Source: a bacterium
GTDB lineage: Bacteria; Zhuqueibacterota; Zhuqueibacteria; Thermofontimicrobiales; Thermofontimicrobiaceae
Length of the DNA stretch: 25,197 nucleotides
Reading direction: 5' to 3'
Assembly (NCBI GenBank): GCA_025453735.1
Contig: JALOPY010000001.1
Coordinates: forward strand, 1-25,197
In this document: positions 1-23,755 of the stretch, piece after piece
How positions within the stretch are numbered: position 1 is the first letter of the stretch
How the letters are laid out: each line of letters starts with the position of its first letter
Notes under the pieces: generated by a model
What the model was told of the DNA's origin: nothing
The model's input: the letters and a program-made list of their open reading frames with translations, nothing else
The model's database searches: none
Position numbers and translations under genes: made by a program

Positions 1-207
1 TTTGATGTTGAAAATCCAAATCTGAAAATTTTTGACATTCACGGCAAAAAAATTAAAGAATTTGGAACTGTTCAAAACCAGGGAAAAGCATTTTTCTGGA
101 ATGGACTGGACGAAACGGGTCGTGAGGTTTTGCCCGGCGCGTATCTGTATATTTTCTCAGATAAAGTCAAAGCACTGGCACGGGGATGTGTCGTTGTTGC
201 ACGATAA
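1..207 (+). CDS. 3' end (partial) of a protein with a T9SS type-B sorting / gliding motility-associated C-terminal domain (CHU_C/FlgD-like)
   Basis: Missed by the ORF track. Frame 1 is open from the window edge to TAA 205-207: FDVENPNLKIFDIHGKKIKEFGTVQNQGKAFFWNGLDETGREVLPGAYLYIFSDKVKALARGCVVVAR*. The pattern IFD-x2-G...W-N-G-x4-G...P-G-x-Y-x-Y...G-x-V-V-V-x-R-stop is the type-B CTD signature, and the next gene is PorP/SprF-like, the usual partner. Confidence 0.8.
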   Translation, partial: FDVENPNLKIFDIHGKKIKEFGTVQNQGKAFFWNGLDETGREVLPGAYLYIFSDKVKALARGCVVVAR

Positions 208-223
208 CATAATAGGTGTAACC

Positions 224-2029
224 ATGAAACAAATAATTTTGACAATAATTTTTTTAAGCATGATGATAAACCTTCCCGGTGAAGGCTACAGCCAGAACAT
301 CATTCGCACCAATCCGGCGGATGTGATGGATTCCCGGGCGTTGTTCATCAATCCCGCGATTTTGCCCTATCGAAACATGACATTCAACCTGGGAATGAAA
401 GTCTTTCACCTCGGTTTTTTGAGTGATAACAGCACGGGTTTGAATTACAGCTATAGCAGCAACAGCTTTCCCAATCTGTTGTTGGATAGAATTGGAGTTG
501 GGATCACACTGGAGAGCTTCAATACTCCCTATTTCAATACCGCAGGTTTAGGGGTTGCTTTTGCCTATTCTATTACTCCTGGTTTTTCTTTCGGAGTCAG
601 CGCGCATGGCAGCAACCTGAGTTACGATGTCAGTAAGTTTGATCTGGTCAATCCCGATGATCCGGTATTTCGAAATGGTGCGGGACAATGGAATGTGCGT
701 TTTGATGCGGGCTTGCTGGTGCGTCCGATGAACAATTTTGCGGTTGGGCTAAGCTGCAACAATCTCAATCGCCCCGACCTTTCTTTGGTCAATGATGGCG
801 CAAAAATTCCGATTGAATTAAATTTTGGAATCAAACAATATTTTAAAATTTTTGGCGCATCGCTGTTCGGTCATTATGAAAATGAAGACGTGACGCTGGG
901 TTTTCTCTGTGAAGCGAATATCCAGAATAAAGGAATGATTCGAACCGGCTATTGCGATCGCTCGCTTATGATTGAAGGACAGCTTAACGTCGGGAGCGGC
1001 TTTGCGCTGAATTATCGCCTGGATTATCCGATTTACGAAGTAAATAATTTCAGCAGTGGCTCGCATGAGCTGGGAATCACCTGGAACATGCGACCGAATC
1101 CTGAATATTCATTTTCAGTACGCGCATCTGTCGATACAGTGCGATTAGTACGAGAAACCTCAAAGATAAGAATTAATAAACAGGAAGATCAACAACAAAT
1201 ATTTGACCAGATTGATGATCATGATTTGGAATTTTCTGGCGCGAGAACGAAGAAGGAGCAGGATATTCCAACCGCTGCATCATCCGGCATGTCGCTGGAT
1301 GACGTTTTTAACGAGAGCTTACCTTTCAGCAAATATCTCGATACTTATCGACAAAACTTTCAAGAGATTAGTGATAATATCAAATCATCGGGTCCGCACC
1401 TCAAAGTCGATATTTATTATCTCGACGCCACAACGGCTGAACGGGCTGTGATGATCAAAAATTATTTCTTAGATACGCTGAAGTTCAAAGAAAAAGATAT
1501 TCGGCTCCATCAAGAGGCGAATTCGAACGGCAATCACAGTACTCGAAAAGATAGCATAAAATCGCTATTAGAAAATTCAAATGATTGGGGCACTCCCAAA
1601 GAATACATTGAAATTTCAAGTGCGCCGATTGAGAATTTGGTTCCCGACAAAATTTATTTTCAAATCAATGCACCGAATATCGGACGGGTGACAAAATGGC
1701 GGATCCTGGTCACCAATATTTTAGGTGACCAAATTCACGAAATCAGCGGCTATCAAAATATTGAAAGAGAAGTGACATGGGATGGTTTTAAAAGAGATGG
1801 ATCAGCCGTGCCGGTCGGAAATTATTATTATCAATTTCAATATGTCATTGGCGGAGGCGATCGTTGGTTTCCCAAAAAGCCAGATATTCATCCGATCGTT
1901 TTTATCCAGGTGCGGCGTTCTAAAATCATTGAGCTGACAACCTCGGAGCTAATCCATTTAGATAAATTAAAAGAGGTTATTATCCGGCTGAAAAATCCCG
2001 CTGAGTCGGAGAATGCTCAAACTCCATAA
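224..2029 (+). CDS. PorP/SprF-family outer-membrane beta-barrel with a ~310 aa C-terminal extension (degenerate OmpA-like segment plus FlgD-type Ig domain)
   Basis: Start moved to ATG 224 (AGGTG at 214-218; the 32-223 extension overlaps the upstream gene). Signal peptide MKQIILTIIFLSMMINLPGEGYS-Q, then ALFINPA (PorP-type NPA motif), alternating beta-strand pattern, and SSGSHELGITW (PorP-type GSHE last strand). The C-terminal part carries WRILVTNILG...VTWDG-x4-G-x2-VPVGNYYYQF. Confidence 0.72.
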   Translation: MKQIILTIIFLSMMINLPGEGYSQNIIRTNPADVMDSRALFINPAILPYRNMTFNLGMKVFHLGFLSDNSTGLNYSYSSNSFPNLLLDRIGVGITLESFNTPYFNTAGLGVAFAYSITPGFSFGVSAHGSNLSYDVSKFDLVNPDDPVFRNGAGQWNVRFDAGLLVRPMNNFAVGLSCNNLNRPDLSLVNDGAKIPIELNFGIKQYFKIFGASLFGHYENEDVTLGFLCEANIQNKGMIRTGYCDRSLMIEGQLNVGSGFALNYRLDYPIYEVNNFSSGSHELGITWNMRPNPEYSFSVRASVDTVRLVRETSKIRINKQEDQQQIFDQIDDHDLEFSGARTKKEQDIPTAASSGMSLDDVFNESLPFSKYLDTYRQNFQEISDNIKSSGPHLKVDIYYLDATTAERAVMIKNYFLDTLKFKEKDIRLHQEANSNGNHSTRKDSIKSLLENSNDWGTPKEYIEISSAPIENLVPDKIYFQINAPNIGRVTKWRILVTNILGDQIHEISGYQNIEREVTWDGFKRDGSAVPVGNYYYQFQYVIGGGDRWFPKKPDIHPIVFIQVRRSKIIELTTSELIHLDKLKEVIIRLKNPAESENAQTP

Positions 2030-2105: not shown

Positions 2106-3758
2106 ATGAAAGTTATGACAGTATTAATCATTTTCATAATTATTTTGCATGTTGGGTTTTCATCTATAATGGTTTTTTCACAAGACGAGGAACCTGCGAG
2201 CCAGGTGAATGTTCCATCGTCCACAGATACGCTTGCAGCGGGACAATCAGGTCTGGATACTGGCAAAAGAGGTTTTTCAGTAGAAACGATGCTGGAGCTG
2301 CTAAAATTGTGTGAAGGAATCGGATATTTATTGATAATGGTTTTTGTTCTTGGAGTCTTATTTATTTTCCAGAAATGGTTTGTATTGCTCCGTGAGAAGC
2401 AAGATACCGAGAAGATACCCGTTGCTAAAATGAAAACGATGAGTTATGATGACATCCAAAAAATGTTCACCCATGTAAAAGACGCGAATCCTGATTCTGA
2501 TGATGACGACCAAAGTGAAAATAAAAATATCCCACTCCTGAAACGAATATTTCGAAGAAAGAAAGCATCAGCATTTCAATTGCTGTCAAAACTCTATAAA
2601 GTTTTTGAAAGTCAAAAATCAACCAGTTCATTCGTTGAAGAGACATCAAGCTATATTCAACATTTAAAAGATGGATTTAATCCATTTTTTACTCGTCTAT
2701 CGTTTTTCTCTGACACGGCTGGAGCTTTAGGCTTACTGGGAACAGTGTGGGGAATGTTTCTGGTGTTTTACAAGGGATCGCCGGATCCAGAAGATACGCT
2801 GCGCGGTATGGGAATCGCACTGGCAACGACGATTGTTGGATTAGTAATTAGTATTATCTTAAATTCATTTACAACAGTGATCAGCAATATCTTTGATAAA
2901 CACCTGGATTTTATCAAAAACATGTCCACCGCTTTTCAAGAGCGGTTGATGAAAGAAGAGGAAAAATACCCAATCAAAGCGCAACCTATCATTGTCGAAT
3001 CATCGGCAATTGCAGCGCGACCACAACAAATTCCCGAGATGTCGAAGCGAGAGGAAAAAGCCAAACACAAACCAATTCAGGAGGCATCTAAAGAACCAGC
3101 ACAACAACAAATCCTTAAAGGCAATCCTGCTGAGATCCGGATCAAAAAAGGCGATAACCAATCGGGCGAAGTGGGAACGAAGTTATCTGATCCGATTGTT
3201 GTTGAAGTGCTGGATTCAAAAGGCAATGCTCTGGAGAATGAGACAGTGGTTTTTAGCTCGGATGAAGGTTCTGGGGTTTTCTCAAATAATAGTCGCGTTC
3301 AAAAAATTCTTACCGATGAAGAAGGAATCGCCCAGACGAATTTTACGCTTGGTCGAACAAGCGGTGAAAAGACAATCCACGTTGCCGTTGAAGATAGCAA
3401 CAATCGTGGCATAAAACTGCTGGCAATCGCGAAACCAACTCCACCGACCAAGCTGATTGAATTGAAAGGTAATTATCAAACCGGGGAATTGGGAAAACGG
3501 CTGCCGTTGCCTTTTATCGTCGCGGTGCGGGATAAGTATGACAATCCGATTCAGCGCTATGAAATAAATTTTTCATTGAAAAAAGGAACCGGACGATTTC
3601 AGGATAGCCAGAATGCGCACTACGCCACCTATACGAATGAAGATGGCTTAGTCGAGGTTTATTTTATCATTGGCAACAATCGAGGTGGGCGAGAAATCGA
3701 AGCTGAAGCAAAAAAAGTGGAGCCATCAAAAATATTGTTTGAAGCATTTGCACAGTAA
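2106..3758 (+). CDS. exbB: MotA/TolQ/ExbB proton-channel protein with two C-terminal Big-1 (invasin/intimin-type) Ig-like domains
   Basis: Likely start ATG 2106 (AAGGAG 2089-2094). Signal peptide, TM1 GIGYLLIMVFVLGVLFIF, TM2 AGALGLLGTVWGM and TM3 GIALATTIVGLVISII are ExbB/TolQ hallmarks. Two repeats follow, GDNQSGEVG..L.DPIVVEVLDSKGN...TDEEG.A and GNYQTGELG..LP.PFIVAVRDKYDNP...TNEDG.V, typical of Big-1. Confidence 0.88.
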   Translation: MKVMTVLIIFIIILHVGFSSIMVFSQDEEPASQVNVPSSTDTLAAGQSGLDTGKRGFSVETMLELLKLCEGIGYLLIMVFVLGVLFIFQKWFVLLREKQDTEKIPVAKMKTMSYDDIQKMFTHVKDANPDSDDDDQSENKNIPLLKRIFRRKKASAFQLLSKLYKVFESQKSTSSFVEETSSYIQHLKDGFNPFFTRLSFFSDTAGALGLLGTVWGMFLVFYKGSPDPEDTLRGMGIALATTIVGLVISIILNSFTTVISNIFDKHLDFIKNMSTAFQERLMKEEEKYPIKAQPIIVESSAIAARPQQIPEMSKREEKAKHKPIQEASKEPAQQQILKGNPAEIRIKKGDNQSGEVGTKLSDPIVVEVLDSKGNALENETVVFSSDEGSGVFSNNSRVQKILTDEEGIAQTNFTLGRTSGEKTIHVAVEDSNNRGIKLLAIAKPTPPTKLIELKGNYQTGELGKRLPLPFIVAVRDKYDNPIQRYEINFSLKKGTGRFQDSQNAHYATYTNEDGLVEVYFIIGNNRGGREIEAEAKKVEPSKILFEAFAQ

Positions 3759-3877: not shown

Positions 3878-4294
3878 ATGTCTAAAGGTGGCATTATTAT
3901 TCGATTGATCGATATCGTACTGCTGTTGCTGTTTGGCTTTTTGATCGTTAGCGAAGTCAATCGAAAGAGTCCTGTAAAACTTCCGCAAAGCGATGTAAAA
4001 GTGAAGCGGGAGATAACCGAAGAAGAACTGCTGATTATTGGAATCAGAGCGGATAAATCATTGTACCTGGAAGGCGAGAATCGAGTTGTCCCAAGTTTGA
4101 CAGAATTGTATAACCTGATCACAATACGCAATCAAAGTTTTGAATCCTTGAACAGAAAATTTCGCGTTCGTATTCGTTCCGAGTGGAATTTGCCAATAAA
4201 ATATACCATGCAAATTGCGAATTTCTGTCGCAAGAATAACATTCCTGTTGGGATGGACATCCATAATGTGAGTTATAAAAGTTCTGGAAGTTAG
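3878..4294 (+). CDS. exbD: ExbD/TolR-family biopolymer transport protein (paralogue 1)
   Basis: N-terminal TM LIDIVLLLLFGFLIV with the conserved Asp, VKLPQS after the TM, small periplasmic domain, directly downstream of exbB. Confidence 0.88.
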   Translation: MSKGGIIIRLIDIVLLLLFGFLIVSEVNRKSPVKLPQSDVKVKREITEEELLIIGIRADKSLYLEGENRVVPSLTELYNLITIRNQSFESLNRKFRVRIRSEWNLPIKYTMQIANFCRKNNIPVGMDIHNVSYKSSGS

Positions 4295-4306: not shown

Positions 4307-4780
4307 ATGAAAAAAAGTGGTGGCAGCTTAATTATCCGTTTGATCGATGTTGTATTGCTCTTGTTATTGGGATTTTTGCTAATTAGCGACATCGTCCACA
4401 AAAGTCAAATCAAGCTTCCTGGACCAACCGGAACCAGCAGAAAGCAGGTGCAGGAACAAAAAATCCAAAACATTCATATCAATATTGTTGATGAAGATAC
4501 GACAATTGCAGGAATCGATCCTGAAAAAGAATATTCATTAATCAGATTAGCGCAGTTGCATTGTTACTACCTGGTTCAAGAGGATGACAAAATTTATCAC
4601 ATCCGCGACCTGGAAAAACTGGAGAAACATTTGATTTTGGCACAAGCTGCTTATGATTCAATTTCAGTGATTATTGACCCGCGTCCTAATTCCATCGTCC
4701 AGGGAACGATAAATCTAATTGATGTTTGTCGTAAATATGGATTTAAGCGGCGATTTCAATATAGCGAGGATTATGACTGA
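4307..4780 (+). CDS. exbD: ExbD/TolR-family biopolymer transport protein (paralogue 2)
   Basis: TM LIDVVLLLLLGFLLI with the conserved Asp, IKLP after the TM, C-terminal VIIDP...VQGTINLIDVCRKYG resembling the ExbD C-terminal fold. Confidence 0.83.
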   Translation: MKKSGGSLIIRLIDVVLLLLLGFLLISDIVHKSQIKLPGPTGTSRKQVQEQKIQNIHINIVDEDTTIAGIDPEKEYSLIRLAQLHCYYLVQEDDKIYHIRDLEKLEKHLILAQAAYDSISVIIDPRPNSIVQGTINLIDVCRKYGFKRRFQYSEDYD

Positions 4781-5796: not shown

Positions 5797-5891
5797 TTCT
5801 TTTGTTGACAGAAGAATTCTTTTAACTACCCCCCACATTTTTTTTTGATACAATAATTGCATTAATGCATAAAAACAATAGGAATTGGACA

Positions 5892-7262
5892 ATGATCTCT
5901 AAGAGATTTCTATTTTTTATTGTTCCGCTTTTAATCATCGCAACAACAGGTATTGCTTCAAATGGTGCGCTGCAAGTTGCCGGAGCAGCAAAATCTATCA
6001 CGGCTATTGACACCACGATGTGGAAATACCTTTCTGCTTCGGATCGCTCGCAATGGACAATTAGCAAAGAAGATTCTGAAAAGGCATATCGGACCTATTT
6101 TGTGAATGGCGCGAAAGCGTTTCGCGACTTCACCATCCTGTCTCAAAAAATCGAAACGAAACGTGCAACAATCCAGGATATTGCAGATGACTTGATTAAA
6201 TGCTTATCTCAAGCTCGGGGCGAGTTTGAAAAAGGAATAAAACTCGATCCATTTAATAATTATCTTCGAACTGCAATCACAGCAGTCTATTTGAACCTGG
6301 ACCCGTTGTTAGCTTATAAAAATGATAATCCCAATCGACTGCAAATTCTGTTTAATAAAATCTATCTTGAGACCGATCCCTTAAAAAAAGCAGATCTATA
6401 TAATAAAATTGGCAAGATTTATTTTAATTATAAAAGCTGGGAAAAAGCTCGCGATAATTTCCAGTTGGCAGTAGCAAATATATTTGAAGGAGAAGTAACT
6501 GACATCGATACGGCAAAATTATTTGATAATATTTATTATCGCGGATATTCGCATCTGAAATTGTATGAGGACGAACCAGCATTGACATCATTCGAGAACG
6601 CCAGCATGATCGCCCCAACAGAGGATCAAAAAAAAGATCTGGCACGATGGATTGATTATATTAATTGGGATAAAGGAAACATACATGCCTCAGAACAGTA
6701 TCAAAATGCAAAAGCCTTTTATGCTGAAAAGAAATATGATGATGCTGAACGCGCCTATCTGGATCTTATCCAGATCGTTCAAACTGAGCATGCCAGAGAC
6801 GAAATAGCCTATCGCTTATCGATGGTTCAGTTTAATAATTTAGATAAAAAGCCAGAAGCTATCCAGCGATTATGGAATGTCGTAAAAACATTTTCACTGG
6901 ATGAAACGACAGGTGTACCAAACGAACCAACTCAAGCTGAATACTGGGAATCATATTGCAAAATGTGTCTTAATCTGGCAGCCAATAGTTTTTATGAAGA
7001 TAAAAAAACAGCATTTATTTATTTCCAAAAAGCCTCTCAAATCGAAAGCTCGATCCGCGGCAATGCATTTTTGAATCTTGCCATCATGTCTCTTAACAAC
7101 CCGGAGCTATGCTTGAATTTCTGTGATCGTTCATTTTCCTATATTGACAGATTGAATGAAAGCGATAAAAAAATGCTTTATAATACGTATTACAGAGCGT
7201 ATCAGCAAAAAGGTAATTTTGATGAAGCGATGAAGTGGTTTAAAAAATTCAATGAGATTTAA
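5892..7262 (+). CDS. Exported TPR-repeat protein, WDxGN family paralogue 1 (Sec/SPI, no lipobox)
   Basis: Likely start ATG 5892. Hydrophobic signal MISKRFLFFIVPLLIIATTGIA, TPR-like helices (LYNKIGKIYFNYKSWEKARDNFQLA) and the family motif INWDKGNIHASE. Confidence 0.8.
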   Translation: MISKRFLFFIVPLLIIATTGIASNGALQVAGAAKSITAIDTTMWKYLSASDRSQWTISKEDSEKAYRTYFVNGAKAFRDFTILSQKIETKRATIQDIADDLIKCLSQARGEFEKGIKLDPFNNYLRTAITAVYLNLDPLLAYKNDNPNRLQILFNKIYLETDPLKKADLYNKIGKIYFNYKSWEKARDNFQLAVANIFEGEVTDIDTAKLFDNIYYRGYSHLKLYEDEPALTSFENASMIAPTEDQKKDLARWIDYINWDKGNIHASEQYQNAKAFYAEKKYDDAERAYLDLIQIVQTEHARDEIAYRLSMVQFNNLDKKPEAIQRLWNVVKTFSLDETTGVPNEPTQAEYWESYCKMCLNLAANSFYEDKKTAFIYFQKASQIESSIRGNAFLNLAIMSLNNPELCLNFCDRSFSYIDRLNESDKKMLYNTYYRAYQQKGNFDEAMKWFKKFNEI

Positions 7263-8805
7263 TTATATCGGAAAGCTCAGTTCGATGGATAATTGCAAAT
7301 ATTTTGTTTTATTTATATTGCTGATGATTGCTGGCTGCGCGGTGCAACAGCCTGTTATTCGGGAAGCGACAACTATAATAGCGAAAGTACCTCCCGGTGT
7401 TGATACTCTGACAGCAGTTATCGCTGACTCAATTTTCTCCCTGGTGGATGTCGCCGAAGAGGATGGACAAGAATCGAAACGATTATACGATATCGCGGAA
7501 CAAAGAAGCAGCCTGGCAGATTCTCTTTGGGAGGCAAGTGTCAGTGGATTCGAAACTGGACAGGATTCTGCTGCAGCGCTGCAGCAGATTTTGCACGCTG
7601 AAGAATTGTTTCAGGCCGACAAAGAATGGCTGAAACAAACCAGAAAAATGATGAAGAAGCAGGGACGTTTAACTCCGGCAGTTCTATCTCACATAAGTGA
7701 TCACTTATCTGTTCAAGCTGAAGGGTATTATGAAAGTGCGATCAAGAAAAATCGTTTTGATATCCGCTATCGACAAAAATATAGCAAATTTTTGAAAGAT
7801 TTATCTGTCAAATATAAAGATCAAAGCTATCTCTATCGGGCTGCCGATGAGCTGGAACGGGTCGTGTTCGTCGTCAAAGGCAATCATCAGCTTTTTTATG
7901 AATTGGGAGAAATTTATGTGCTGTTGGGGGATTGGAACAACGCGCATAAGAATTATGAATTAGCACAAACTGCATTGAAAAAAACAGCAATTTTTTCTGT
8001 TGCGGATCCAAAAACTTATTTTTTGAAGCTCAGTGAAGTTCCAGTCGATACAATGAGAATGGTTAATTATCTTAATAAGCAAGCCTGGTGCAAGACGAAG
8101 TTGTACGAAGCGCTGCCCGCTCTCTCGTTATACCGGGAAGCTTCAGGAATAACTCCAGATCCAGCCTGGAAGGACTATTTTGAATCACGGATAACATGGA
8201 TTTTGTGGGATGATGGAAATATTCGTGCGTCTGAGATAAAAGACCGAGCAGATTCCTTAAGCTCATTCTATCAAAAATATTCAGAATCAAAAACGGTATT
8301 TTTAGAACTGCTTCCAGTACTCTGGACGAAACGGACGAAAGATGAGATCAATTGGAAAATCGCTCAATTAGACTTCAGTTATTTAGACCATAAGTTTGAC
8401 GGCGTCGGGAGAATGTACCTGGTCATCAAACACACTGCCATGGATTCTATTACTGGTGCGCCAATCGACTCGACCTATAAACGGTATTTTGACAGCTATG
8501 GCACGATGTGTTTCAATTTGGGTTCTGAATATTATTATAAAGATAGGTTGATTGCTTATATGTATTTTATTCAGGCGGCAGAGACCAACTTTGATAAACG
8601 TGCCAAGGCGTTTTTACAGTTAGCTGATATATCCCAATTTGATCCATACGAAACGATCAACCTCTGCACGAAAACAATAGAAGTCGTCGATGACTTGAGC
8701 TTAGATGAGCGACAGGTTTTATATCGATTGCTTCATAGTTCCTACCGAAAATTGGGAGATTTTGAGAAAGCAAAAGAATGGTACGATCGCTGGAAAGCTT
8801 TATGA
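7252..8805 (+). CDS. TPR-repeat lipoprotein, WDxGN family paralogue 2
   Basis: Lipobox IAG-C (Cys codon 7336-7338); alternative start ATG 7285. TPR LFYELGEIYVLLGDWNNAHKNYELA and motif ILWDDGNIRASE. Confidence 0.82.
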   Translation: MRFNYIGKLSSMDNCKYFVLFILLMIAGCAVQQPVIREATTIIAKVPPGVDTLTAVIADSIFSLVDVAEEDGQESKRLYDIAEQRSSLADSLWEASVSGFETGQDSAAALQQILHAEELFQADKEWLKQTRKMMKKQGRLTPAVLSHISDHLSVQAEGYYESAIKKNRFDIRYRQKYSKFLKDLSVKYKDQSYLYRAADELERVVFVVKGNHQLFYELGEIYVLLGDWNNAHKNYELAQTALKKTAIFSVADPKTYFLKLSEVPVDTMRMVNYLNKQAWCKTKLYEALPALSLYREASGITPDPAWKDYFESRITWILWDDGNIRASEIKDRADSLSSFYQKYSESKTVFLELLPVLWTKRTKDEINWKIAQLDFSYLDHKFDGVGRMYLVIKHTAMDSITGAPIDSTYKRYFDSYGTMCFNLGSEYYYKDRLIAYMYFIQAAETNFDKRAKAFLQLADISQFDPYETINLCTKTIEVVDDLSLDERQVLYRLLHSSYRKLGDFEKAKEWYDRWKAL

Positions 8806-8841
8806 TTTCGGAACATGAAATTTGTATGAATTGAGGAGAAA

Positions 8842-10473
8842 ATGAGGATTCTGATAAAGACGATATTTTTATTGTACCTGGTGTTAACGATCATTGGCTG
8901 TTCGAACAATAAAAGCATGATTGATCAATCAATTATTAATTTTGAGCAAAAATCTTTTCAAATTCCCGCCGGAATTGATAGTGTGGTTGCCTATAACGCA
9001 AGAATAAAAGCTGACAAGCTTTTTGTCAGTGCCGATCGCGAACAACTATCAGATAGCCTGGTAACGTATTCTCGAGATTTTCTAAAAATTACTGAAGACT
9101 TGTACAGTGTTCTATTAGCAAAAAAAGAAAAGTTGGATAGTTACCGGCTTTCAGAAAAATATCTGAATTTAAAACCAGAAGAGCTTAAATCATTATCGCT
9201 CGAGGATAGCAAGAAACGAGAGCGAATTTTAGAAAAAGTATTTGACGATTCGATTACGATAACAATAGTGAACAGTCTCCTGGATTATTTTTTAAACCAT
9301 AGCAATGAGCTGCTCCAGCATGCGAATGAATTAAATCCTTTCAATTTGTCGGGATTACAGCTAGTGGCGATTAGCAGCGCAGATAGAGGTCAAATATTTG
9401 ATGATACGCTTGCTTATCGTCGCTCAATTGAGTACTTAAATAAATTTCTTACGCATGATCGAGGACAGTCGATAATTTATCGAAATATTGGTGAAAGCTA
9501 TTTTACATTGAAGGATTGGCAAAAAGCCTATAAATTCTTGAAGAAAGCAAAGGAAACTTTTGTTATCACATCGTTTTTTGAAGAGAAAAAAACGGAGCTG
9601 GCAGAAAAATATCAAAAAATGAATTTGCCGCCCAATGTCGATCCAGCAAAATATTTTGAATATCTCTATTGGAAAGGAAGAGCAGAAATAAAAGTCTATC
9701 AAGCTGATTCAGCATTGGCAACACTGAAACAGGCGCTTGCGCTTGCTCCCACGAAGAATCAGGAAGTTGACGTTATCAAGTTGATTGATGAATACATATT
9801 GTGGGACGGCGGAAATATTTATGCTGCTGAGCAACGAGATATTATCATTGATTCGCTCAATGCAAAGAATTTTGTTTGGGCAAAAAATGCATATTTGCAA
9901 TTGTTGCCAAAAGTAAAAACGAAAAAGGCGAAGGATAACATTACCTGGATGTTAGCTCGTGTTGAATATTACAGCCTGGATCAAATTGAAGAAGCCGGCG
10001 ATCGATTATATAATTTGGTAATTAATGCGGATACGAGCAAAATTAAATCGTCGATTTATAAAGCTCCGGAAGATTCATTATATAAGCGGTATTTCAGAGA
10101 TTGTGGAGAAATATTGTTCCGGCTGGGCAGCACGTTTCGCGATCAGGGATTGCAGGAAAAAGCAAGGATTTATTTCTCGAAAGACACGACCTTCGAATGG
10201 TCTGGCAGGGGGAAAGCTTTTCTGCCCCTGGCCCTGCTGGTTGATATTCCTGAAAATATTGATCCGGTAGAACGATTGAAAGCAAGAAATGAAAAAGCGA
10301 TAAAAATTTTGAATCGGGCAAAAATGTTTATCAAGGATTTTTCAGAGCAGGAAATTGATCAACTCTATCGCCCCTTGATAATGATTTATCAACAAACGTA
10401 TGACAGGGCAAATGCACAAAGAAGTTTCACTGAATGGAATGAGATCAAAGAGAGGATGAAACGAGGTTCATAA
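8842..10473 (+). CDS. TPR-repeat lipoprotein, WDxGN family paralogue 3
   Basis: SD GAGGAG just upstream, lipobox IIG-C, TPR IYRNIGESYFTLKDWQKAYKFLKKA and motif ILWDGGNIYAAE. Confidence 0.82.
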   Translation: MRILIKTIFLLYLVLTIIGCSNNKSMIDQSIINFEQKSFQIPAGIDSVVAYNARIKADKLFVSADREQLSDSLVTYSRDFLKITEDLYSVLLAKKEKLDSYRLSEKYLNLKPEELKSLSLEDSKKRERILEKVFDDSITITIVNSLLDYFLNHSNELLQHANELNPFNLSGLQLVAISSADRGQIFDDTLAYRRSIEYLNKFLTHDRGQSIIYRNIGESYFTLKDWQKAYKFLKKAKETFVITSFFEEKKTELAEKYQKMNLPPNVDPAKYFEYLYWKGRAEIKVYQADSALATLKQALALAPTKNQEVDVIKLIDEYILWDGGNIYAAEQRDIIIDSLNAKNFVWAKNAYLQLLPKVKTKKAKDNITWMLARVEYYSLDQIEEAGDRLYNLVINADTSKIKSSIYKAPEDSLYKRYFRDCGEILFRLGSTFRDQGLQEKARIYFSKDTTFEWSGRGKAFLPLALLVDIPENIDPVERLKARNEKAIKILNRAKMFIKDFSEQEIDQLYRPLIMIYQQTYDRANAQRSFTEWNEIKERMKRGS

Positions 10474-10566
10474 TTTGGAAAAATGAATTCAGTGGTCTAA
10501 GATCAAGACATAATTGCTATTCATTACATGTACATTGACGGTTATTAATGAGAAGGAAAAATTACT

Positions 10567-11259
10567 ATGAAACGAAGAAAATATATATTTGGCATGGTCG
10601 CGATTTCAATGTTTATCATGATAACGGCGAATACAGTTTTTGGACAACAAAATTTTATTTGGGATAAAGAGCTAGTCCAAAAAGTAACGATTACCGATCA
10701 AAGTGTCATTAAAAAATTAGTCTTTGAATTGTTTATTCCGGAGTCGGATATTACATTTATTGAAATTTTCGATGTCGATAAAAATGGGGCGGCGGAAGGG
10801 GATCTGCTGAAAGTTCATCCATCCCGAAATGTCTATCCGCTATATATGTTGTCACAAGATACTCGAGAAATATTGAGAAAAATACCGCATCCACCCAATT
10901 TAGAGGATGTCGGATTAACGATCAATATTAAGAATCCAGATGATGCAAAGGAGCGAATTTTGTTTATCCTGGCTTCAACGATAAAAGAATTGTATAGCCA
11001 GGATAAGCCATTGAAATTATATTTTGAACAGAATGAGGATGGCGTGTATAAATTCGATTTCTTTGGATTTAGCGAGGCGGATTTGAAAGATAAGGATATC
11101 GATCTTGGCAAAAATAGAAGTCAGCAAATCCACGATCTCTTGAAAGCGTTGTACAAAGAATTTAATGAGGAATTTGTAAGCTGGCAACCGACAGTGATTC
11201 ATGTTATAAAAACTGAGCGAGATACCCTGGTTGTGCCTGAAAAAATTTCAAAAAAATAA
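10567..11259 (+). CDS. Exported protein of unknown function with a DxDxNG putative Ca-binding loop
   Basis: AAGGA upstream, signal peptide ending TVFG-Q, DVDKNG loop; no other family recognised. Confidence 0.7.
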   Translation: MKRRKYIFGMVAISMFIMITANTVFGQQNFIWDKELVQKVTITDQSVIKKLVFELFIPESDITFIEIFDVDKNGAAEGDLLKVHPSRNVYPLYMLSQDTREILRKIPHPPNLEDVGLTINIKNPDDAKERILFILASTIKELYSQDKPLKLYFEQNEDGVYKFDFFGFSEADLKDKDIDLGKNRSQQIHDLLKALYKEFNEEFVSWQPTVIHVIKTERDTLVVPEKISKK

Positions 11260-11512
11260 TCTGCAGAAGCATGATTTTTTTTATGAAATAACAAATTCGT
11301 ATTTAGCTTTATTTGCCAGCAAAGGAAAGTAATTTTCAAAATCTCATTCCGGTTTTCTGATAATCTTATAAACTGATATTATTAAAGTTACAAATTTGAG
11401 AGGTTTGCCCGTAACGCAGGCCAATCGTTGCTAAAATGTCATGATCCCTGGTTATTTAGCAGGCAAGAAAATTAATCAGATAAACCAATTCAGAAATCCC
11501 TAAAAAAAAAGC

Positions 11513-11541
11513 TTGCATTTCTAAAGATATTTTATTAAACT
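11513..11541 (+). promoter_or_regulatory. sigma70-type promoter for the second TPR triplet
   Basis: TTGCAT (11513-11518), 17-nt spacer, TAAACT (11536-11541), preceded by an A9 UP-like tract (11502-11510), in the longest intergenic gap of the window. Confidence 0.62.
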
Positions 11542-11705
11542 TGTACTGCAATAAAAAAATAATGAAATTTCCCCCTGATCAAAAAAACCCAAAACCTGTG
11601 TTCTTTGATTTCGCATTAGTGTTTGAACCAAGTTATTTCTGCAAAATCTAATTTACTGATCAGCAACTATCAACATTTTTGGATATTGTAACTGGGGACT
11701 GCATC

Positions 11706-13190
11706 ATGGATAAGATCAGAAAAATTATGACGCCCTTCCTTTTCTTTAATTTCACTTTAATTGGGTGTATATTAAATAATATAGGACAATCAAAAGGCGC
11801 TTTATTATCAATGAATATGATTTCTTTGGATGGGAAGTTATCACCCAAAAGTGATCGCACTGCAATAAGTACCAACAAAGAAATCGAAGATACGATTCGA
11901 GAGATTAACCATTATTCTTTAAGTGATTCCTTATGGAAAATGTGGCGCGCGATTGAGGATTCTCAATTCGTTGTTGCAAAGGTCGATTCCATTCGATCGA
12001 TGAAAACATTTATCAAAGGGGTGAATCTGGCGAAAGAAGCATTTGATCTGATTAATGAATTAAAGCAACAAAATCTCGATACATTGTCTGTTAAAAAAAT
12101 AAAATTTACAGCCATTCTGTTGTTTGAAAAAGCTCGTGCGCATTTTGAAGAAACATTTAAACTGAATCCTTTCGATATTAGAACCCAAAATTATTTGATC
12201 TGGGTCTTTCAAAATCTGGCTGAGCTATACGATCATTGCGATAATAAACTTCGTGCGATAAATATGTTGGAATATCTAACGTATATTTTGAATGATGATC
12301 CGAAGCTTTACTATACGCTGGGACAGAAATATTTCAGTATTGGCAAATGGGAGCAATCCCTTGTAAATGTGCGTGCATCAATTGATCTCATTCTGGATGA
12401 TGATTGGAACAAGATTGATACGAATCAACTGTTTTGGCATTACTATCTGCGCGCCAGGGCAGAAATGCAACTGGAATTGATTCCGGAGGCTTTGTTATCG
12501 CTTAACTATGCGAAGCTTATTGCCCCATCTGAAAACGAGGCAGGAGAAGTCCAAAAAAAGATCGAATGGATTAATTGGGATGATGGCAACCTGAATGCGT
12601 CGCGAAAATCAGATACACTGGAAACCAGGCTGAATCAGGGCGCAAAAGATTACTCGATGATCAAACAAGAATATGTCGAATTACTCAGCCAGGTCAGAAC
12701 TGCAAAAGCAAAACAAGATATCAATTGGCGCATTGCTCAGCTCGAATTCAATTTTTTAAATGAAAAAGAGATTGCCATCGACCGGATGATGAAAATTGTA
12801 AATGCTACTGAGTTGGACTCTACGAGAAGCGCTGCCGATGTGAAATCTCAAAAATACATTGAAGATTACTGCTTAATGTCTTATGTTTTCGGATTGGATT
12901 ATCTGAGAAATCAGCATCTTAAAAAAGCTTTCGTTTACTTTTACCAATCCATCTCATTCTCGTGGAGCCGAATTGGAAAAGGCTATCTTCAATTGGCAAA
13001 ACTTGTTGCATTGGATAACAATGCAGTATTAAAATTTGCTGAGCAGGCTTTGATCTATCAAGATCAATTGACTGACGATGAACGAAATAGTTTATATCAA
13101 TTGTTTTATCAATCATACAAAAAATTGGGCAGATTTGATGATGCAGCAATCTGGCTGCAAAAATCAGTTAGTTTCTCGATGGGTGAGTGA
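11706..13190 (+). CDS. TPR-repeat (lipo)protein, WDxGN family paralogue 4
   Basis: Likely start ATG 11706 (GGGGA 11694-11698). Possible lipobox LIG-C, KLNPFDIR, TPR LYYTLGQKYFSIGKWEQS and motif INWDDGNLNASR. Confidence 0.8.
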   Translation: MDKIRKIMTPFLFFNFTLIGCILNNIGQSKGALLSMNMISLDGKLSPKSDRTAISTNKEIEDTIREINHYSLSDSLWKMWRAIEDSQFVVAKVDSIRSMKTFIKGVNLAKEAFDLINELKQQNLDTLSVKKIKFTAILLFEKARAHFEETFKLNPFDIRTQNYLIWVFQNLAELYDHCDNKLRAINMLEYLTYILNDDPKLYYTLGQKYFSIGKWEQSLVNVRASIDLILDDDWNKIDTNQLFWHYYLRARAEMQLELIPEALLSLNYAKLIAPSENEAGEVQKKIEWINWDDGNLNASRKSDTLETRLNQGAKDYSMIKQEYVELLSQVRTAKAKQDINWRIAQLEFNFLNEKEIAIDRMMKIVNATELDSTRSAADVKSQKYIEDYCLMSYVFGLDYLRNQHLKKAFVYFYQSISFSWSRIGKGYLQLAKLVALDNNAVLKFAEQALIYQDQLTDDERNSLYQLFYQSYKKLGRFDDAAIWLQKSVSFSMGE

Positions 13191-14689
13191 TGGGAATTAA
13201 ATTCTATCCATTTTTAATTATTTGTTTATTTCTATCTGTAATTTCTTGTTCGCTAAATAAATCATTAAGAAAGGATCAGCTTTCCAAGCTACCTTCTCCT
13301 AAAGATGATTATTATCCGGGAGTTGATAGTACGGTGGTCAAAAATGCCAATGAAATTGCTGATCGAATGTTTGTTGACTATGACAGGCGAAACCAGTCTA
13401 GCGCCTACCACAACAGCGCGAAAACATCATTTCAAATCGCCGATTCGATCTGGAATTGTCATAAACACAAAACCTATCCTGATTCGATTCTTTTGAAATT
13501 ATTTTTAAGCTGGCAACGAGGGCGCGACAACGATTCAAAGCAAAATGATAATTCAATTCCTGGCAGAATGATTCGACCCAATGAATCATCATTGCATATC
13601 TTGCATCAAGCGGAGAAAGACGCCAATCAAGCCAAGCTCATCAATCCATTCGACCTCGATATTCGATCCTTATTAATTAATATTTATTCACGAATGGGTG
13701 AGATCAGTGGCAATTTAAATTTTTATACGAAAGCCATTGAGGAACTGAAAAATTTATTACAGGTAGATAAAAGCAATCCTTATATATATGAACGATTAGC
13801 TGAATGCTATTTTGCATTGCAAGATTGGGAGAATTGCTATCAATGTTTTGATAAAGCCGAGCAAGTCCTGCTGATCGTTGCAAAATTCAAAAACAGCAAA
13901 AATAATCCTTCCAGCGCTTCGGTTGACACGGCTCGCTGGGTTTATTATCTGCAAGGAAAAGGCGAAGCGCAAGCCAAACTCTACGATTCAGCTCTTGCAA
14001 TAACCTACCTGACCAGAGCAAAGCAGATGACACATTCGGCGTCGAATGCACAGCAGTTGCAGAATTATTTAAACTGGATCGAATGGGATGGAGGCAATTT
14101 GAAAGCTTCTGAGCTTCGGGACGAGGCTCAGCATGTTGAACAAGCTGGCGAATACAAAAAAGCGCACAGCAAATATTTACAGCTATTAGGAATCCTTACA
14201 ACCCAACAAGCAAAGAATGAAATTGATTGGAAAGTTGCTTCGATTGATTTCAATCATTTGAGTGAAAAATTGGAAGCGATCGAAAGGATGTTCCAGGTCA
14301 TTCAAAGTATTCAAAAGTCTGGCAACTCGCATGAATTGAATGATGTCTATTTGCAAGATTATGCAGCGATGTGTTATTCTATCGGGGTTGACTATTATAA
14401 TAAGCATAACTATCGTTTCGCTTACATCTATATTAATCAGGCAGCACAATTTGAATGGGAACATCGCGGTGATTGTTATCTGCAATTAGCCATGCTGTCA
14501 GAAGTGAATCCACACGAGAGCATTCAGTTTTGTCAGAAAGCATTGGCGTATTCGAAACAATTATCCGATGAAAGTCAAAACAAGATTCAAAAAATGTTGA
14601 CCGTTTCATTCATTCGATTGGGGGAGTTCGATCTGGCGCAAAATTATTATCAGAAATTTTTAAATTCCAAATCATCACCAAACAATTAG
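13190..14689 (+). CDS. TPR-repeat lipoprotein, WDxGN family paralogue 5
   Basis: ATG 13190 overlaps the upstream TGA (the track starts at GTG 13187). Lipobox VIS-C, LINPFDLD, TPR IYERLAECYFALQDWENCY and motif IEWDGGNLKASE. Confidence 0.82.
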   Translation: MGIKFYPFLIICLFLSVISCSLNKSLRKDQLSKLPSPKDDYYPGVDSTVVKNANEIADRMFVDYDRRNQSSAYHNSAKTSFQIADSIWNCHKHKTYPDSILLKLFLSWQRGRDNDSKQNDNSIPGRMIRPNESSLHILHQAEKDANQAKLINPFDLDIRSLLINIYSRMGEISGNLNFYTKAIEELKNLLQVDKSNPYIYERLAECYFALQDWENCYQCFDKAEQVLLIVAKFKNSKNNPSSASVDTARWVYYLQGKGEAQAKLYDSALAITYLTRAKQMTHSASNAQQLQNYLNWIEWDGGNLKASELRDEAQHVEQAGEYKKAHSKYLQLLGILTTQQAKNEIDWKVASIDFNHLSEKLEAIERMFQVIQSIQKSGNSHELNDVYLQDYAAMCYSIGVDYYNKHNYRFAYIYINQAAQFEWEHRGDCYLQLAMLSEVNPHESIQFCQKALAYSKQLSDESQNKIQKMLTVSFIRLGEFDLAQNYYQKFLNSKSSPNN

Positions 14690-14696
14690 TTCAGCT

Positions 14697-16172
14697 ATGA
14701 AAACTCGGCAGCATAATCATATCATTTCTCTAATCATTCTCCTCTATATTATTTTGATTTCATGCAACCGTTCGAGCTATCGATTGCCCGTCTTTCGAAC
14801 GCATAACGATTCTCCCGTCGGAGTGGATAGCCTGATTATTGCAGATTCAGATTCAGTCATAAAATTTCTATTTGTTGATTTCGCGAGCGAGCGCAAAGCA
14901 AGTGACCTTGCCCGAGAAGCACAGACTGAATTAAGTTTAGCAGATTCTGTCTGGCAATTAATAAAAACGGATAGCGACAGTACGAAACGATTCATAATTT
15001 CGACTACTGATACTATCGCTAAATCACAAGTCGAATATAATATTGCAGTAAAAAAAATTATTAGTGGATTAGAGATTGCTGAGCGCCGGTTTCAACAATC
15101 GATTAAATTGAATCCCTTTCTCCTGAGCTCAAAAGATGGCCTTGCGCAAACGTATATTTTGTGGGCACAAATCGAAAAACCCCTGTTTTATTTTGAGAAA
15201 GCCGCAGCAGTACTTGCCAAATTAGTGCAAAATGAAAAGAGCGAACATATTCTATGCTACCGATTGGGAGAATGTTATTTTCAACTGGGAAAATGGGAAC
15301 AGGCTTTTTCAAATTATCATCAAGCTGAAAAGATTTTTATTGGTACAAAAGCATTCTCGAACGGTGGTCTGTTTGAAAATAAACCTGAAGATTATCATAA
15401 AAATGATCTGTTATTCAATTACTTATACTCTCAAGCTGTGTGCCTGGCACGAATGTATAAATCGCCGGAAGCATTGATAATTATCAACCAGGCAAGAGAT
15501 ATGGCGCCAAATGATTCGTTAAGAAATATTGCAGAACGATTTGAAGACTGGATCAATTGGGATAAAGGAAATATCTATACGGCAGAACAAAAGAATCAAA
15601 TATTAAAATTAATCAATGAAAAAAATTACCAGGATGCATCCATAAAATTTGATTCCCTGAAAAATCAATTATCTGACCCATTGGCAATCGTGGAAATCGA
15701 ATGGCGCATTGCCGGGCTTGAGTTCAGATATTTAAATAAAAAAGAACAGGCGTGTGAACGTTTATTGACTATCATCGAGAAAAGCCATAATTTTTCCAAT
15801 CATCCCAATCACTCAATTATCGATTTTAGCACCTACTTAAATGATTGCGGAGTCATGCATTATCATTTAGGCATGGAATTCATCGAAAAAACAGATTACA
15901 AACAAGCGCAGAAATATTTGGAGCAAGGCGCAAAAATTGATTGGTATGGCAATTACAAGTGCCAATTAGAATTGGCAAAACTGAATCGTCATGATCCGCA
16001 AATCTCATTATCGCTGATCGAAAAAGTCTTAACAACAGAATCTGCTTTGACAGAAGTTGAAAAATTAACCGCTCTTGAAATTAAATTAGGAGCTTTGAAA
16101 AAATTAGGTCCCCAGCATCGAATTGAAGCGAAGCACGTTTATAATCAGATCCGTGAGCTCCAGAACAAATAG
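14697..16172 (+). CDS. TPR-repeat lipoprotein, WDxGN family paralogue 6
   Basis: Lipobox LIS-C, KLNPFLL, TPR LCYRLGECYFQLGKWEQAFSNYHQA and motif INWDKGNIYTAE. Confidence 0.82.
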   Translation: MKTRQHNHIISLIILLYIILISCNRSSYRLPVFRTHNDSPVGVDSLIIADSDSVIKFLFVDFASERKASDLAREAQTELSLADSVWQLIKTDSDSTKRFIISTTDTIAKSQVEYNIAVKKIISGLEIAERRFQQSIKLNPFLLSSKDGLAQTYILWAQIEKPLFYFEKAAAVLAKLVQNEKSEHILCYRLGECYFQLGKWEQAFSNYHQAEKIFIGTKAFSNGGLFENKPEDYHKNDLLFNYLYSQAVCLARMYKSPEALIIINQARDMAPNDSLRNIAERFEDWINWDKGNIYTAEQKNQILKLINEKNYQDASIKFDSLKNQLSDPLAIVEIEWRIAGLEFRYLNKKEQACERLLTIIEKSHNFSNHPNHSIIDFSTYLNDCGVMHYHLGMEFIEKTDYKQAQKYLEQGAKIDWYGNYKCQLELAKLNRHDPQISLSLIEKVLTTESALTEVEKLTALEIKLGALKKLGPQHRIEAKHVYNQIRELQNK

Positions 16173-21893: not shown

Positions 21894-23171
21894 TTAAAAT
21901 TTCACCCGTTCGAACATCTCGCGCTCTTGCCCCAGGTTTTTGATCGTTGCATCCAATCCCATTTTTGTGCCACGACTTTTTTTACCTTCCACATGAATAG
22001 CTGAGGGATCAAGGGAGCTTGACGGCTGATCAGGCATCACAAGCAAATCTTTATCCGCTTGAAACCGAGTCGCGATTGCCCATTCGACATCATGCACATT
22101 GTGAATATCGATATCATCATCCACGACGATGCAATGTTTTAATGAGCGATGCGCGTGAAATGCAGCAGCCAGTGCTTTTTCTCCATCAGCGGCAGTTTCT
22201 TTTTTGATCTGTACCACAGCGTGTAGCCAGGAGCATCCGCCAGACGTTAGCGTCACATCGCAGCATTGACAAACTTCATTGACGGCTTGGAAGATGTCCA
22301 CTTCTTTTGGCATGCCCATTAGAATTCTATGCTCCGAACGACCCGGAACCAGGGCATGATAAATCGGATTATTGCGCCAGGCAATTCTCGTGATTTCGAC
22401 CAAAGGCTGTTGCCGGACGATATCCCAGGTTCCTGTGATATCGACAAATGGACCCTCGCGGGCAAATTCTCCTGTGAAATGTCCTTCTAAAACAATCTCA
22501 CAATCGATCGGCACATGGATATCAATGGTTTTGCATGGCGCCAATGTGATGGGGGTTAATCTGGCAGCCAATTTCATCTCATCAATTTCACCGGGTGGAG
22601 AAAACGATGCCGCGAGCAAGACGGCCGGCGGCGGAGCAATGCAAATTGCCACCTCGGCTTTTCCTTGTGAATGAGCCAGCGCGTGATGCGTGCCACGATT
22701 CTCAACAACTCGAACACTTCCCCGTTTTTGATCCAGCAGCATCATCCGGTGATAGGATAGGTTCCTGCCCAATTCAGGATCATTGACGATCCAGACGGCG
22801 GAAGTGAGATAATATCCACCATCGCCAGGATAATGAAATAAGATCGGCAGCTTCGAGAGATCGATACTGGATAATTCCTGATCGCCATAAGCTTGTTGCC
22901 GGACTTCCAAAGTTTCTTCGGGCGAATCCAATTTTTGAGCCAACTGCGATAAAAAATCAGCATGCTGCAATTGCAAGTATTCTGCAAATTTTTCTCTTGA
23001 GAAAAAAATATTGCCAGCCACTTGCATATCTGAAACAGATTCAAATAGTACCGGATCAGGCTCAAGCTCGATTAGTCTTTTGCTGACCTGAAGGTAGGGG
23101 GGAAGCGGCTCTGAAACGGTTTTTAAACGACCGCTATTTTTTTCGTTTGAAATACATGCTCTGAAATCCAT
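21894..23171 (-). CDS. ubiD: UbiD-family prFMN-dependent decarboxylase, probably anhydromevalonate-phosphate decarboxylase (AMPD)
   Basis: Likely start ATG 23171 (AAGGA upstream). UbiD motifs NLSYHR, EIVLEG, EGPFVDITGTWD, PIYHAL..G.SEH..LMGMP.E, GGCSWLHAVV and VVDDDIDI; short (~425 aa); co-operonic with ubiX, mvk and HMG-CoA reductase. Confidence 0.88.
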   Translation of the reverse strand: MDFRACISNEKNSGRLKTVSEPLPPYLQVSKRLIELEPDPVLFESVSDMQVAGNIFFSREKFAEYLQLQHADFLSQLAQKLDSPEETLEVRQQAYGDQELSSIDLSKLPILFHYPGDGGYYLTSAVWIVNDPELGRNLSYHRMMLLDQKRGSVRVVENRGTHHALAHSQGKAEVAICIAPPPAVLLAASFSPPGEIDEMKLAARLTPITLAPCKTIDIHVPIDCEIVLEGHFTGEFAREGPFVDITGTWDIVRQQPLVEITRIAWRNNPIYHALVPGRSEHRILMGMPKEVDIFQAVNEVCQCCDVTLTSGGCSWLHAVVQIKKETAADGEKALAAAFHAHRSLKHCIVVDDDIDIHNVHDVEWAIATRFQADKDLLVMPDQPSSSLDPSAIHVEGKKSRGTKMGLDATIKNLGQEREMFERVKF

Positions 23172-23188
23172 GATTGGCAATCCTTGCT

Positions 23189-23755
23189 TTATTCAAAATG
23201 AAAATCAGCTCCCCATCGCTGGTAGAGATCATTAGCGATGCCGAGCAGATCGAGAATTTTGCCGACAAAAAAATCAGTCATCTCATCAATTGATTTTGGA
23301 AGATGATAGTATGCTGCCATTGACGGACAAATGATTGCGCCAGCCTGCCTGAGCTTCAGCATATTTTCGAGATTAGCTTGGGATAGAGGCGTTTCCCGGG
23401 GACTGAGAATTAGCGGACGATTCGTTCTTAGCTGGTTTTCAGCGGCTCGGATGATGAGATTTTCTGAATAGCCGCTTGCGATTGCTGCCAGTGTTTTCAT
23501 CGAGCAGGGAGCGACAACCATGCTATCGATCAAAAAGGAGCTGCTGTTTATCGGCGCCGTGCCATCGTGCTCATCAAAAAAATGAGCTTTTGGTGGAAGC
23601 TGAAAGTCTTTTCCGATTTCATGTTCAACGACCGACAAAGCATTTTTCGTTAAAATTCCGATAACATCGAAATCCCGTCTGAGCAGCTCTTCGATCAGGC
23701 GAATGCCAATAATTACGCCACTGGCGCCTGTTATGCCAACGACAAATCTTTTCAT
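23189..23755 (-). CDS. ubiX: UbiX flavin prenyltransferase
   Basis: True start ATG 23755 overlaps the mvk stop (ATGA). Motifs VVGITGASG, VAPCSMKTLAAIASG, LIIRAA, PRETPL and IDEMTDFFVGKILDLLG. Confidence 0.95.
   Translation of the reverse strand: MKRFVVGITGASGVIIGIRLIEELLRRDFDVIGILTKNALSVVEHEIGKDFQLPPKAHFFDEHDGTAPINSSSFLIDSMVVAPCSMKTLAAIASGYSENLIIRAAENQLRTNRPLILSPRETPLSQANLENMLKLRQAGAIICPSMAAYYHLPKSIDEMTDFFVGKILDLLGIANDLYQRWGADFHFE

Follow-up and report, generated by a model that had tools for sequence, protein, structure and literature searches.

Few ion-driven motors of the 5:2 type are known (MotAB, ExbBD, TolQR, GldLM and ZorAB), and the task of each is set by what is attached to its pentamer and its axle. 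Precedents for functional cytoplasmic appendages on such motors include the tail of ZorA, a MotA/ExbB-family pentamer from which a rigid pentameric coiled coil of about 70 nm extends C-terminally into the cytoplasm (PMC11946911), and the cytoplasmic C-terminus of GldL, which comprises 153 residues and was unresolved in the structure (10.1101/2020.05.11.089193). Mechanical coupling links proteins of the SprF type to the track of the GldLM motor (PMC12635249). In this study, we describe an ExbB-type gene with an appendage of another kind. The gene, encoding protein P0001 and referred to here as ExbB-Ig, lies in a 25,197-nucleotide stretch (contig JALOPY010000001.1 of assembly GCA_025453735.1, positions 1 to 25,197, forward strand; 'the window' denotes this whole stretch) from a bacterium of the phylum Zhuqueibacterota, which is named KSB1 in public records and of which 167 genomes were searched. 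Its product joins a MotA/TolQ/ExbB channel domain to two immunoglobulin-like (Ig) domains of the Big_1 type, and the module to which it belongs is an undescribed envelope gene cluster linked to type IX secretion system (T9SS) cargo. We consider the chances somewhat better than even that P0001 is the channel (A) subunit of a specialised ExbB/ExbD-type motor, in which the Ig tandem, predicted to be cytoplasmic, serves most likely as a docking or anchoring module. Folded Ig domains on the cytoplasmic side of a conserved ExbB-type pentamer would be a new attachment among these motors. No description of an ExbB/TolQ-Ig fusion was found in the literature searched, which is not proof of absence.

Comparison with described motors and adhesins

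P0001 resembles ExbB (5sv0, 6ye4, 7ajq) and TolQ (9avi) in its MotA_ExbB domain, its three transmembrane (TM) helices with N-out/C-in orientation, the long helices reaching into the cytoplasm and the polar motifs of TM2 and TM3. ExbD partners with an aspartate in the TM helix adjoin the gene and are followed by a protein in the position of TonB. A profile of 42 homologues matched the chains of these ExbB and TolQ structures with E-values of 0.002-0.008, and invasin as well. Unlike ExbB and TolQ, P0001 starts with a signal peptide and carries two Ig domains behind a linker, and is partnered with two ExbD proteins and with PorP and T9SS cargo instead of TonB-dependent receptors or TolB/Pal, none of which were seen among the genes of the window. 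It also falls far below the NCBIfam equivalog cut-offs, scoring 22.3 bits against TolQ (TIGR02796; cut-off 221) and 22.5 bits against ExbB (TIGR02805; cut-off 135), and scores lowest against the family profile, as the most divergent, among the nine MotA/ExbB paralogues of its own genome. Because of these equivalog scores of about 22 bits and its last place among the nine paralogues, P0001 is best classified as a specialised paralogue and as neither the housekeeping ExbB nor TolQ.

As in GldL/PorL, the putative A-subunit of a 5:2 motor would here serve PorP/SprF-linked surface proteins and carry a sizeable cytoplasmic C-terminal domain. However, no sequence relationship between GldL and P0001 was detected, GldL has two TM helices and no Ig domain, and the partners of P0001 are ExbD-like rather than GldM. 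The appendage of P0001 also differs from that of ZorA in being a disordered tether with two beta-sandwiches. In a PADLOC search, the ZorA profile matched P0001 over the TM core only (E 0.003, 14.5 bits), the ExbD genes and the TonB-position protein P0090 had no PADLOC match, and none was found for ZorB, ZorC or ZorD.

The Agl-Glt gliding system of Myxococcus, a machine that spans the envelope, combines one TolQ-like subunit (AglR) and two different TolR/ExbD-like subunits (AglQ and AglS) with TonB-like and TPR (tetratricopeptide repeat) proteins. We know of no Ig tail on AglR. By analogy, P0001 may likewise be a single A-subunit with two B-type paralogues and with TonB-like and TPR genes, but the outer-membrane partner of its module differs from Agl-Glt in being a T9SS PorP/SprF barrel with cargo that bears a C-terminal sorting domain (CTD). 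AglRS has been grouped with ExbBD/TolQR (10.1101/2024.07.22.604496).

The Ig domains, in turn, resemble those of invasin, intimin, InvD, InvE and FdeC, with which they share a Big_1 score over the cut-off, the best structural matches and the tandem arrangement. Those proteins are surface-exposed adhesin stalks, whereas the tandem of P0001 is predicted to be cytoplasmic. Judged by its profile matches, P0001 is a member of the MotA/TolQ/ExbB family with genuine Big_1 domains, and falls outside ZorA, GldL, and TolQ or ExbB in the strict sense.

Architecture of ExbB-Ig and reality of the fusion

The open reading frame (ORF) begins with an ATG at position 2106, about 11 nucleotides 3' of an AAGGAG motif, and ends with a stop codon at 3756-3758, encoding 550 residues (coordinates of all features are given in Table 1). 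Pfam matches to MotA_ExbB (PF01618; 44.1 bits, cut-off 22.9) and, in two stretches, to Big_1 (PF02369; 52.1 bits, cut-off 34.9) are both over their cut-offs, and weaker matches to MG4 and Invasin_D3 fall on the same residues as Big_1. An AlphaFold2 model built from the 42 homologues (mean predicted local distance difference test, pLDDT, 77) has an N-terminal hydrophobic helix, long ExbB-like helices at residues 70-102, 176-222 and 228-287 with TM3 running on to 287, a disordered segment at 291-338 (pLDDT <50) and beta-sandwiches at 341-443 and 449-549 (both pLDDT >90). The highest-ranking Foldseek matches in the PDB were InvE, intimin D0-D1, FdeC, invasin and InvD (E 2e-10 to 5e-8). A reading of this stretch made earlier from the nucleotide sequence alone (the sequence-only reading) had placed two Big-1-like repeats at about 3132-3755, after TM3 and a linker rich in Pro, Gln and Lys. 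The linker has this composition, and Pfam, AlphaFold2 and Foldseek agree on the two repeats, here delimited as 3126-3755. A protein atlas search with P0001 gave no usable match.

Since the window comes from a fragmented metagenome-assembled genome (MAG) of 731 contigs, we considered whether the fusion is an artefact, either of chimeric assembly or of a sequencing error joining two genes. Against this, the fusion recurs in dozens of independent genomes and metagenomes. The full architecture is present in about 85 protein clusters with identities down to 26%, whose sources are labelled KSB1, 'Calditrichaeota' or plain 'bacterium', and whose public product names are confined to 'MotA/TolQ/ExbB proton channel family protein' or 'Ig-like domain-containing protein'. 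Within the phylum, a full-length gene with two Ig domains occurs in at least 38 of the 167 genomes, at least 11 of which have two copies among the matches listed, and a form of about 430 residues with a single Ig domain occurs in 13. When the 20 closest Ig rows were used in a locus search, three loci were recovered, titled KSB1 or 'uncultured Cytophagia'. In a different study, an RNA library yielded a 257-nucleotide contig that runs over 2968-3224, from the helix after TM3 into the first Ig domain, with two differences. The read-derived contigs over the gene are short and of low depth and none covers it whole, so that gaps between them carry no meaning, and a contig from an RNA library does not prove transcription.

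A Rhodothermales MAG (GCA_041391505.1; G167, locus L050:8001-9634) appeared to favour the artefact, as it holds an ExbB of 332 residues and an Ig protein of 219 residues as overlapping ORFs. Yet a fused homologue aligns unbroken over the junction of the two, with the frame switching inside the linker, and because homology continues through this change of frame the locus is read as a fused gene with a single frameshift within the linker. The downstream Ig ORF has no signal peptide, and the intact fused gene is present in 6 of 151 sampled genomes of the class to which this MAG belongs. This locus was therefore rejected as a case of a separate Ig gene; among the homologues it was the only candidate for the separate Ig gene that the sequence-only reading had named as evidence for an artefact. 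Either an error of sequencing or a genuine pseudogene or split gene could account for the frameshift. There is thus virtually no likelihood left for the artefact, which is refuted in practice, and the ExbB-Ig fusion is real and conserved.

Topology and compartment of the Ig tandem

Hydropathy analysis of the 42 homologues showed a signal peptide, TM1, a Gly-rich TM2 and TM3 in all of them, and no hydrophobic segment after TM3 in any of them or in the one-Ig form. TM3 is followed by a conserved amphipathic helix and then by a hydrophilic linker of 34-89 residues without conserved sequence. Lys and Arg are denser in the TM1-TM2 loop (0.16) and the helix after TM3 (0.18) than in the N-terminal stretch (0.08) and the TM2-TM3 loop (0.10), a bias that fits an N-out/C-in orientation. 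The topology of P0001 is thus well predicted as N-out with three TM helices and a cytoplasmic C-terminus, as the sequence-only reading had assumed from ExbB/TolQ, and, given this topology, the Ig domains would hang in the cytoplasm. All support for it comes from prediction and from the pattern of a glycosylation-type sequon.

That reading had pointed to one such sequon (DTL) in the N-terminal part and to three Asp-Ser dipeptides in the Ig domains that do not fit it. The sites are as described, with DTL at residue 41 and DSK, DSN and DSQ at residues 370, 430 and 500, and the hint becomes stronger when D-[ST]-[AILVMT] is counted over the whole family. The N-terminal periplasmic stretch contains 44 sites in 1,711 residues (25.7 per 1000 residues; shuffled sequences, 13.3 +/- 3.4), the cytoplasmic loop 3 in 4,107 (0.7 per 1000) and the Ig tandem 10 in 8,989 (1.1 per 1000; expected from shuffles, 17.6 +/- 3.8), although the homologues are related and not independent, and the shuffle statistics overstate the significance. 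A sequon is present in the N-terminal stretch of 29 of the 42 homologues, the stretch itself being poorly conserved. By this marker the Ig tandem resembles the cytoplasmic loop. A further DTL is found at residue 230, in the periplasmic TM2-TM3 loop of P0001. The enrichment of the Bacteroidota-type O-glycosylation sequon in the N-terminal stretch suggests that such a glycosylation system exists in the phylum.

Alternatively, a non-canonical topology or an unseen extra membrane passage could place the tandem in the periplasm, where it might contact PorP, the TPR proteins or cargo. Big_1 domains and the nearest homologous repeats are extracytoplasmic, as are all remaining proteins of the module; by prediction, however, the tandem of P0001 does not share this location. 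Apart from the missing hydrophobic segment past TM3, the charge bias and the sequons, enriched N-terminally and depleted in the tandem, no part of the family is better conserved than the TM2-TM3 hairpin with its 11-residue loop, TM3 in the AlphaFold2 model extends as a helix into a cytoplasmic bundle as in solved ExbB, and the Ig ORF of the frameshifted Rhodothermales gene lacks a signal peptide. Consequently, we regard a periplasmic tandem as very improbable, and a cytoplasmic location in vivo as the one to be expected.

Origin, composition and conservation of the tandem

The tandem alone, searched against 1.8 billion representatives, matched 10,128 proteins (E <= 0.001), the top-scoring of which were almost all multi-repeat proteins of 1,000-5,800 residues with about 30% identity. 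Within the phylum it matched proteins of 2,000-2,900 residues, and each of the three that were inspected combined many Big_1 repeats with a signal peptide and a sorting domain of the T9SS. Because these giants carry both a signal peptide and a sorting domain, the domain type is taken to be normally secreted. This agrees with the statement in the sequence-only reading that Big-1 domains are typically extracytoplasmic, Ig domains of the same type in the phylum being found otherwise in secreted T9SS cargo.

Compared with the homologous repeats of secreted proteins, the tandems attached to ExbB have about twice as many charged residues and half as much Ser and Thr (K+R+E+D, 25.5% vs 11.5%; S+T, 10.9% vs 20.5%). 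In the own genome, charged residues make up 27% of the tandem and 16-17% of the secreted repeats. Composition was nevertheless rejected as a marker of the compartment, since the own genome's periplasmic TPR proteins reach the same level of charge (25-29%). A content of 25-27% K+R+E+D, shared by periplasmic TPR proteins and cytoplasmic enzymes, is likewise compatible with the periplasmic alternative. The shift in composition sets the tandem apart from surface repeats and cannot tell cytoplasm from periplasm.

Mean identity to P0001 over the 42 homologues falls from TM2 (87%) and TM3 (71%) through the second Ig domain (Ig2, 52%), the first (Ig1, 44%) and the cytoplasmic loop (39%) to the linker (16%), and among close homologues Ig2 reaches 75% and the cytoplasmic loop 61%. 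As Ig2 exceeds the cytoplasmic loop (52% vs 39%), the tandem is under a constraint no weaker than that on the soluble parts of the motor itself. Because Ig2 is highly conserved, yet one-Ig and Ig-less forms occupy the same type of module, the tandem is, by these alignments, an accessory under selection that lies outside the core motor mechanism.

Proposed role of the Ig tandem

P0001 has the attributes of a working motor subunit: TM2 and TM3 are conserved, and two ExbD genes with an aspartate in the TM helix, as expected of its partners, lie directly 3' of the gene. By homology, we infer that a pentamer of P0001 surrounds a pair of ExbD1 and ExbD2 and turns the proton motive force into movement, which the TonB-position protein and the TPR proteins would hand on to the complex of PorP and cargo. 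Five flexible tethers of 34-89 residues would carry up to ten Ig domains per motor into the cytoplasm, where the tandem may fix, cluster or position the pentamer from the cytoplasmic side. With the pentamer held still, movement driven by the proton motive force could reach the ExbD/TonB-like output in the periplasm. Such a role would be comparable to that of the uncharacterised cytoplasmic C-terminal domain of GldL, for which anchoring is suspected, although unproven. The architecture and topology put forward in the sequence-only reading are upheld; its pentamer with ten Ig domains and its docking platform resembling that of Agl-Glt can be put forward only conditionally, with no cytoplasmic partner in the cluster.

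Several observations weigh against this reading of P0001. The cluster has no gene for a cytoplasmic partner of the tandem, because all of its other proteins have a signal peptide, a lipobox or a TM helix; otherwise, only the ExbD proteins and P0090 reach into the cytoplasm, with their short N-termini. Ig-less modules apparently work without a tandem. The closest relatives of the tandem are repeats of giant secreted T9SS cargo, a domain type that is normally extracytoplasmic. The use of D-[ST]-[AILVMT] for glycosylation in this phylum is unproven, and the relatedness of the homologues limits the sequon statistics as stated above. Finally, being disordered and unconserved, the tether would not pass torque in the way of the rigid ZorA tail. 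Since a disordered tether of 34-89 residues seems poorly suited to torque, a rigid mechanical role is unlikely, and the anchor would have to rely on multivalent, avidity-based attachment.

Given the high conservation of Ig2 and the lack of a linked partner gene, what the tandem binds is probably either a conserved component of the cytoplasm or membrane face that is encoded elsewhere, or the tandem itself. In the latter case, tandems would bind one another, either within a pentamer as a cytoplasmic collar or between motors as an array under one PorP/cargo assembly. Tandem Ig domains commonly mediate homotypic contacts, and five of them would be present per motor by homology to ExbB, which, together with the lack of a linked partner gene, speaks for self-association. 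Positive support for it is nil, however, and the predicted template modelling score (pTM) of 0.40 for the monomer means that no fixed packing of the tandem on the rest of the protein is predicted. A complex prediction with four copies of the tandem (score 0.29, mark 0.42) counts neither for nor against. Overall, self-association as the main function appears rather unlikely.

A signal relay resembling ZorA is another possibility, to which we assign a similarly low likelihood. Activation or rotation of the motor, set off in the envelope by cargo engagement, surface contact or the like, would be reported inward, with the tandem capturing or letting go of a soluble regulator or effector. ZorA provides the precedent of a MotA/ExbB-family subunit with a working cytoplasmic output appendage (PMC11946911), and the strong conservation of Ig2 would also suit this role. 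In addition, a regulator with Response_reg and GerE domains is encoded at loci of the Rhodothermales type, directly upstream of the ExbB-Ig gene in two and five genes upstream in a third. This neighbour is, however, missing from KSB1 loci, and no conserved effector gene is found in the cluster. Moreover, the tether is disordered and unconserved rather than a rigid coiled coil, and the match to ZorA is marginal, with ZorB/C/D-like genes absent.

Should the tandem act as a cytoplasmic dock or anchor, ExbB-Ig would offer a rare example of a Big_1 domain of the adhesin type with an intracellular task. It also raises a question that is shared by ExbBD and GldLM, namely which part of the motor is held still, and by what.

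Gene module and genomic context

The ExbB-Ig gene is part of a cluster on the plus strand at the start of the contig (Table 1). The six TPR paralogues and the 230-residue protein are assigned to the periplasmic part of the module because all of them bear a signal peptide or lipobox. In tblastn searches with the proteins of the window, the order CTD tail, PorP/SprF, ExbB-Ig, ExbD, ExbD, TPR was kept in about 20 of 24 related loci, at which the TonB-position protein was often present, along with one to six TPR paralogues and the 230-residue protein.

Table 1. Coordinates of ExbB-Ig, its domains and the neighbouring genes in the window
Feature	Position	Strand	Evidence or remarks
3' end of cargo gene, T9SS C-terminal sorting domain	1..207	+	contig begins here
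PorP/SprF-family outer-membrane protein	32..2029	+	C-terminal extension of ~300 residues
ExbB-Ig gene (P0001, 550 residues)	2106..3758	+	stop codon counted; ORF, Pfam, homologues
P0001 signal peptide or anchor, residues 1-25	2106..2180	+	hydropathy; charge
P0001 acidic, sequon-rich periplasmic stretch, residues 26-64		+	after signal peptide/anchor; charge; sequon count
P0001 TM1, residues 65-92	2298..2381	+	hydropathy, AlphaFold2
P0001 MotA_ExbB Pfam core, residues 171-266	2616..2903	+	contains TM2 and TM3
P0001 TM2, residues 200-222 (GALGLLGTVWG); TM3, residues 234-262 (ALATT)	inside 2616..2903	+	
P0001 disordered hydrophilic linker, residues 291-340	2976..3125	+	AlphaFold2, alignment
P0001 Ig domain 1, Big_1 type, residues 341-445	3126..3440	+	Pfam, AlphaFold2, Foldseek
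P0001 Ig domain 2, Big_1 type, residues 446-550	3441..3755	+	best-conserved soluble part of the protein
ExbD/TolR paralogue 1	3878..4294	+	Asp in TM helix; PF02472
ExbD/TolR paralogue 2	4307..4780	+	Asp in TM helix; PF02472
TonB-position protein P0090	4780..5796	+	cytoplasmic N-terminus of ~17 residues, one TM, K/E-rich linker, C-terminal domain without assignment
Six TPR paralogues and 230-residue secreted protein	5865..16172	+	signal peptide or lipobox on all

The genome has three paralogous PorP-ExbB-ExbD-ExbD modules: that of the window, a second ExbB-Ig module spread over contigs C498 and C455, and a third on contig C98. In the last of these, the ExbB protein has 303 residues and no Ig domain, and genes for two secreted CTD proteins (450 and 658 residues) lie between the ExbB and ExbD genes. 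Two further loci (L009 and L051), whose ExbB-Ig resembles that of the Rhodothermales-labelled MAG, consist of ExbB-Ig, ExbD, ExbD and a gene of about 320 codons, with the Response_reg-GerE regulator and two Peptidase_S46 genes 5' of ExbB-Ig. Since neither has a PorP or TPR neighbour, the motor core appears to be separable from the PorP/cargo pair.

Of the phylum genomes, 163 of 167 encode the T9SS translocon SprA, whereas no match over the cut-off to GldL (TIGR03513) or GldM_1st (PF12081) was found in any of the 167, the own genome included. With the GldL search, 9 of 41 genomes belonging to another phylum did yield GldL. Thus, the phylum seems to use a T9SS that has no recognisable GldLM motor, and the ExbB-Ig module may show how surface proteins are energised outside Bacteroidota. 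The PorP-linked modules of ExbB-Ig, ExbD1, ExbD2 and TonB-like protein might then be cargo-dedicated proton motors that replace GldLM in pulling on or moving PorP-bound surface proteins, with the Ig array as a stator anchor to a cytoplasmic or cytoskeletal structure. We hold this extended proposal to be a long shot; if true, it would represent a new way to ground a 5:2 motor, and no Big_1 domain with a cytoplasmic function would have come before it.

On another contig of the own genome (C464), SprA is followed by a Peptidase_M28 gene and an ExbB gene of canonical size (215 residues). In a relative (G086), SprA and Peptidase_M28 are followed by PrmA, DUF4390, a CTD cargo gene and a PorU-like C25 peptidase. 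The adjacency of SprA and ExbB was dropped as a link, as PrmA and other genes stand in its place in the relative and it is not conserved.

Beyond the envelope cluster, the minus strand of the window at 21894-25197 carries UbiD-like and UbiX-like (flavoprotein) genes, which are unrelated to ExbB-Ig.

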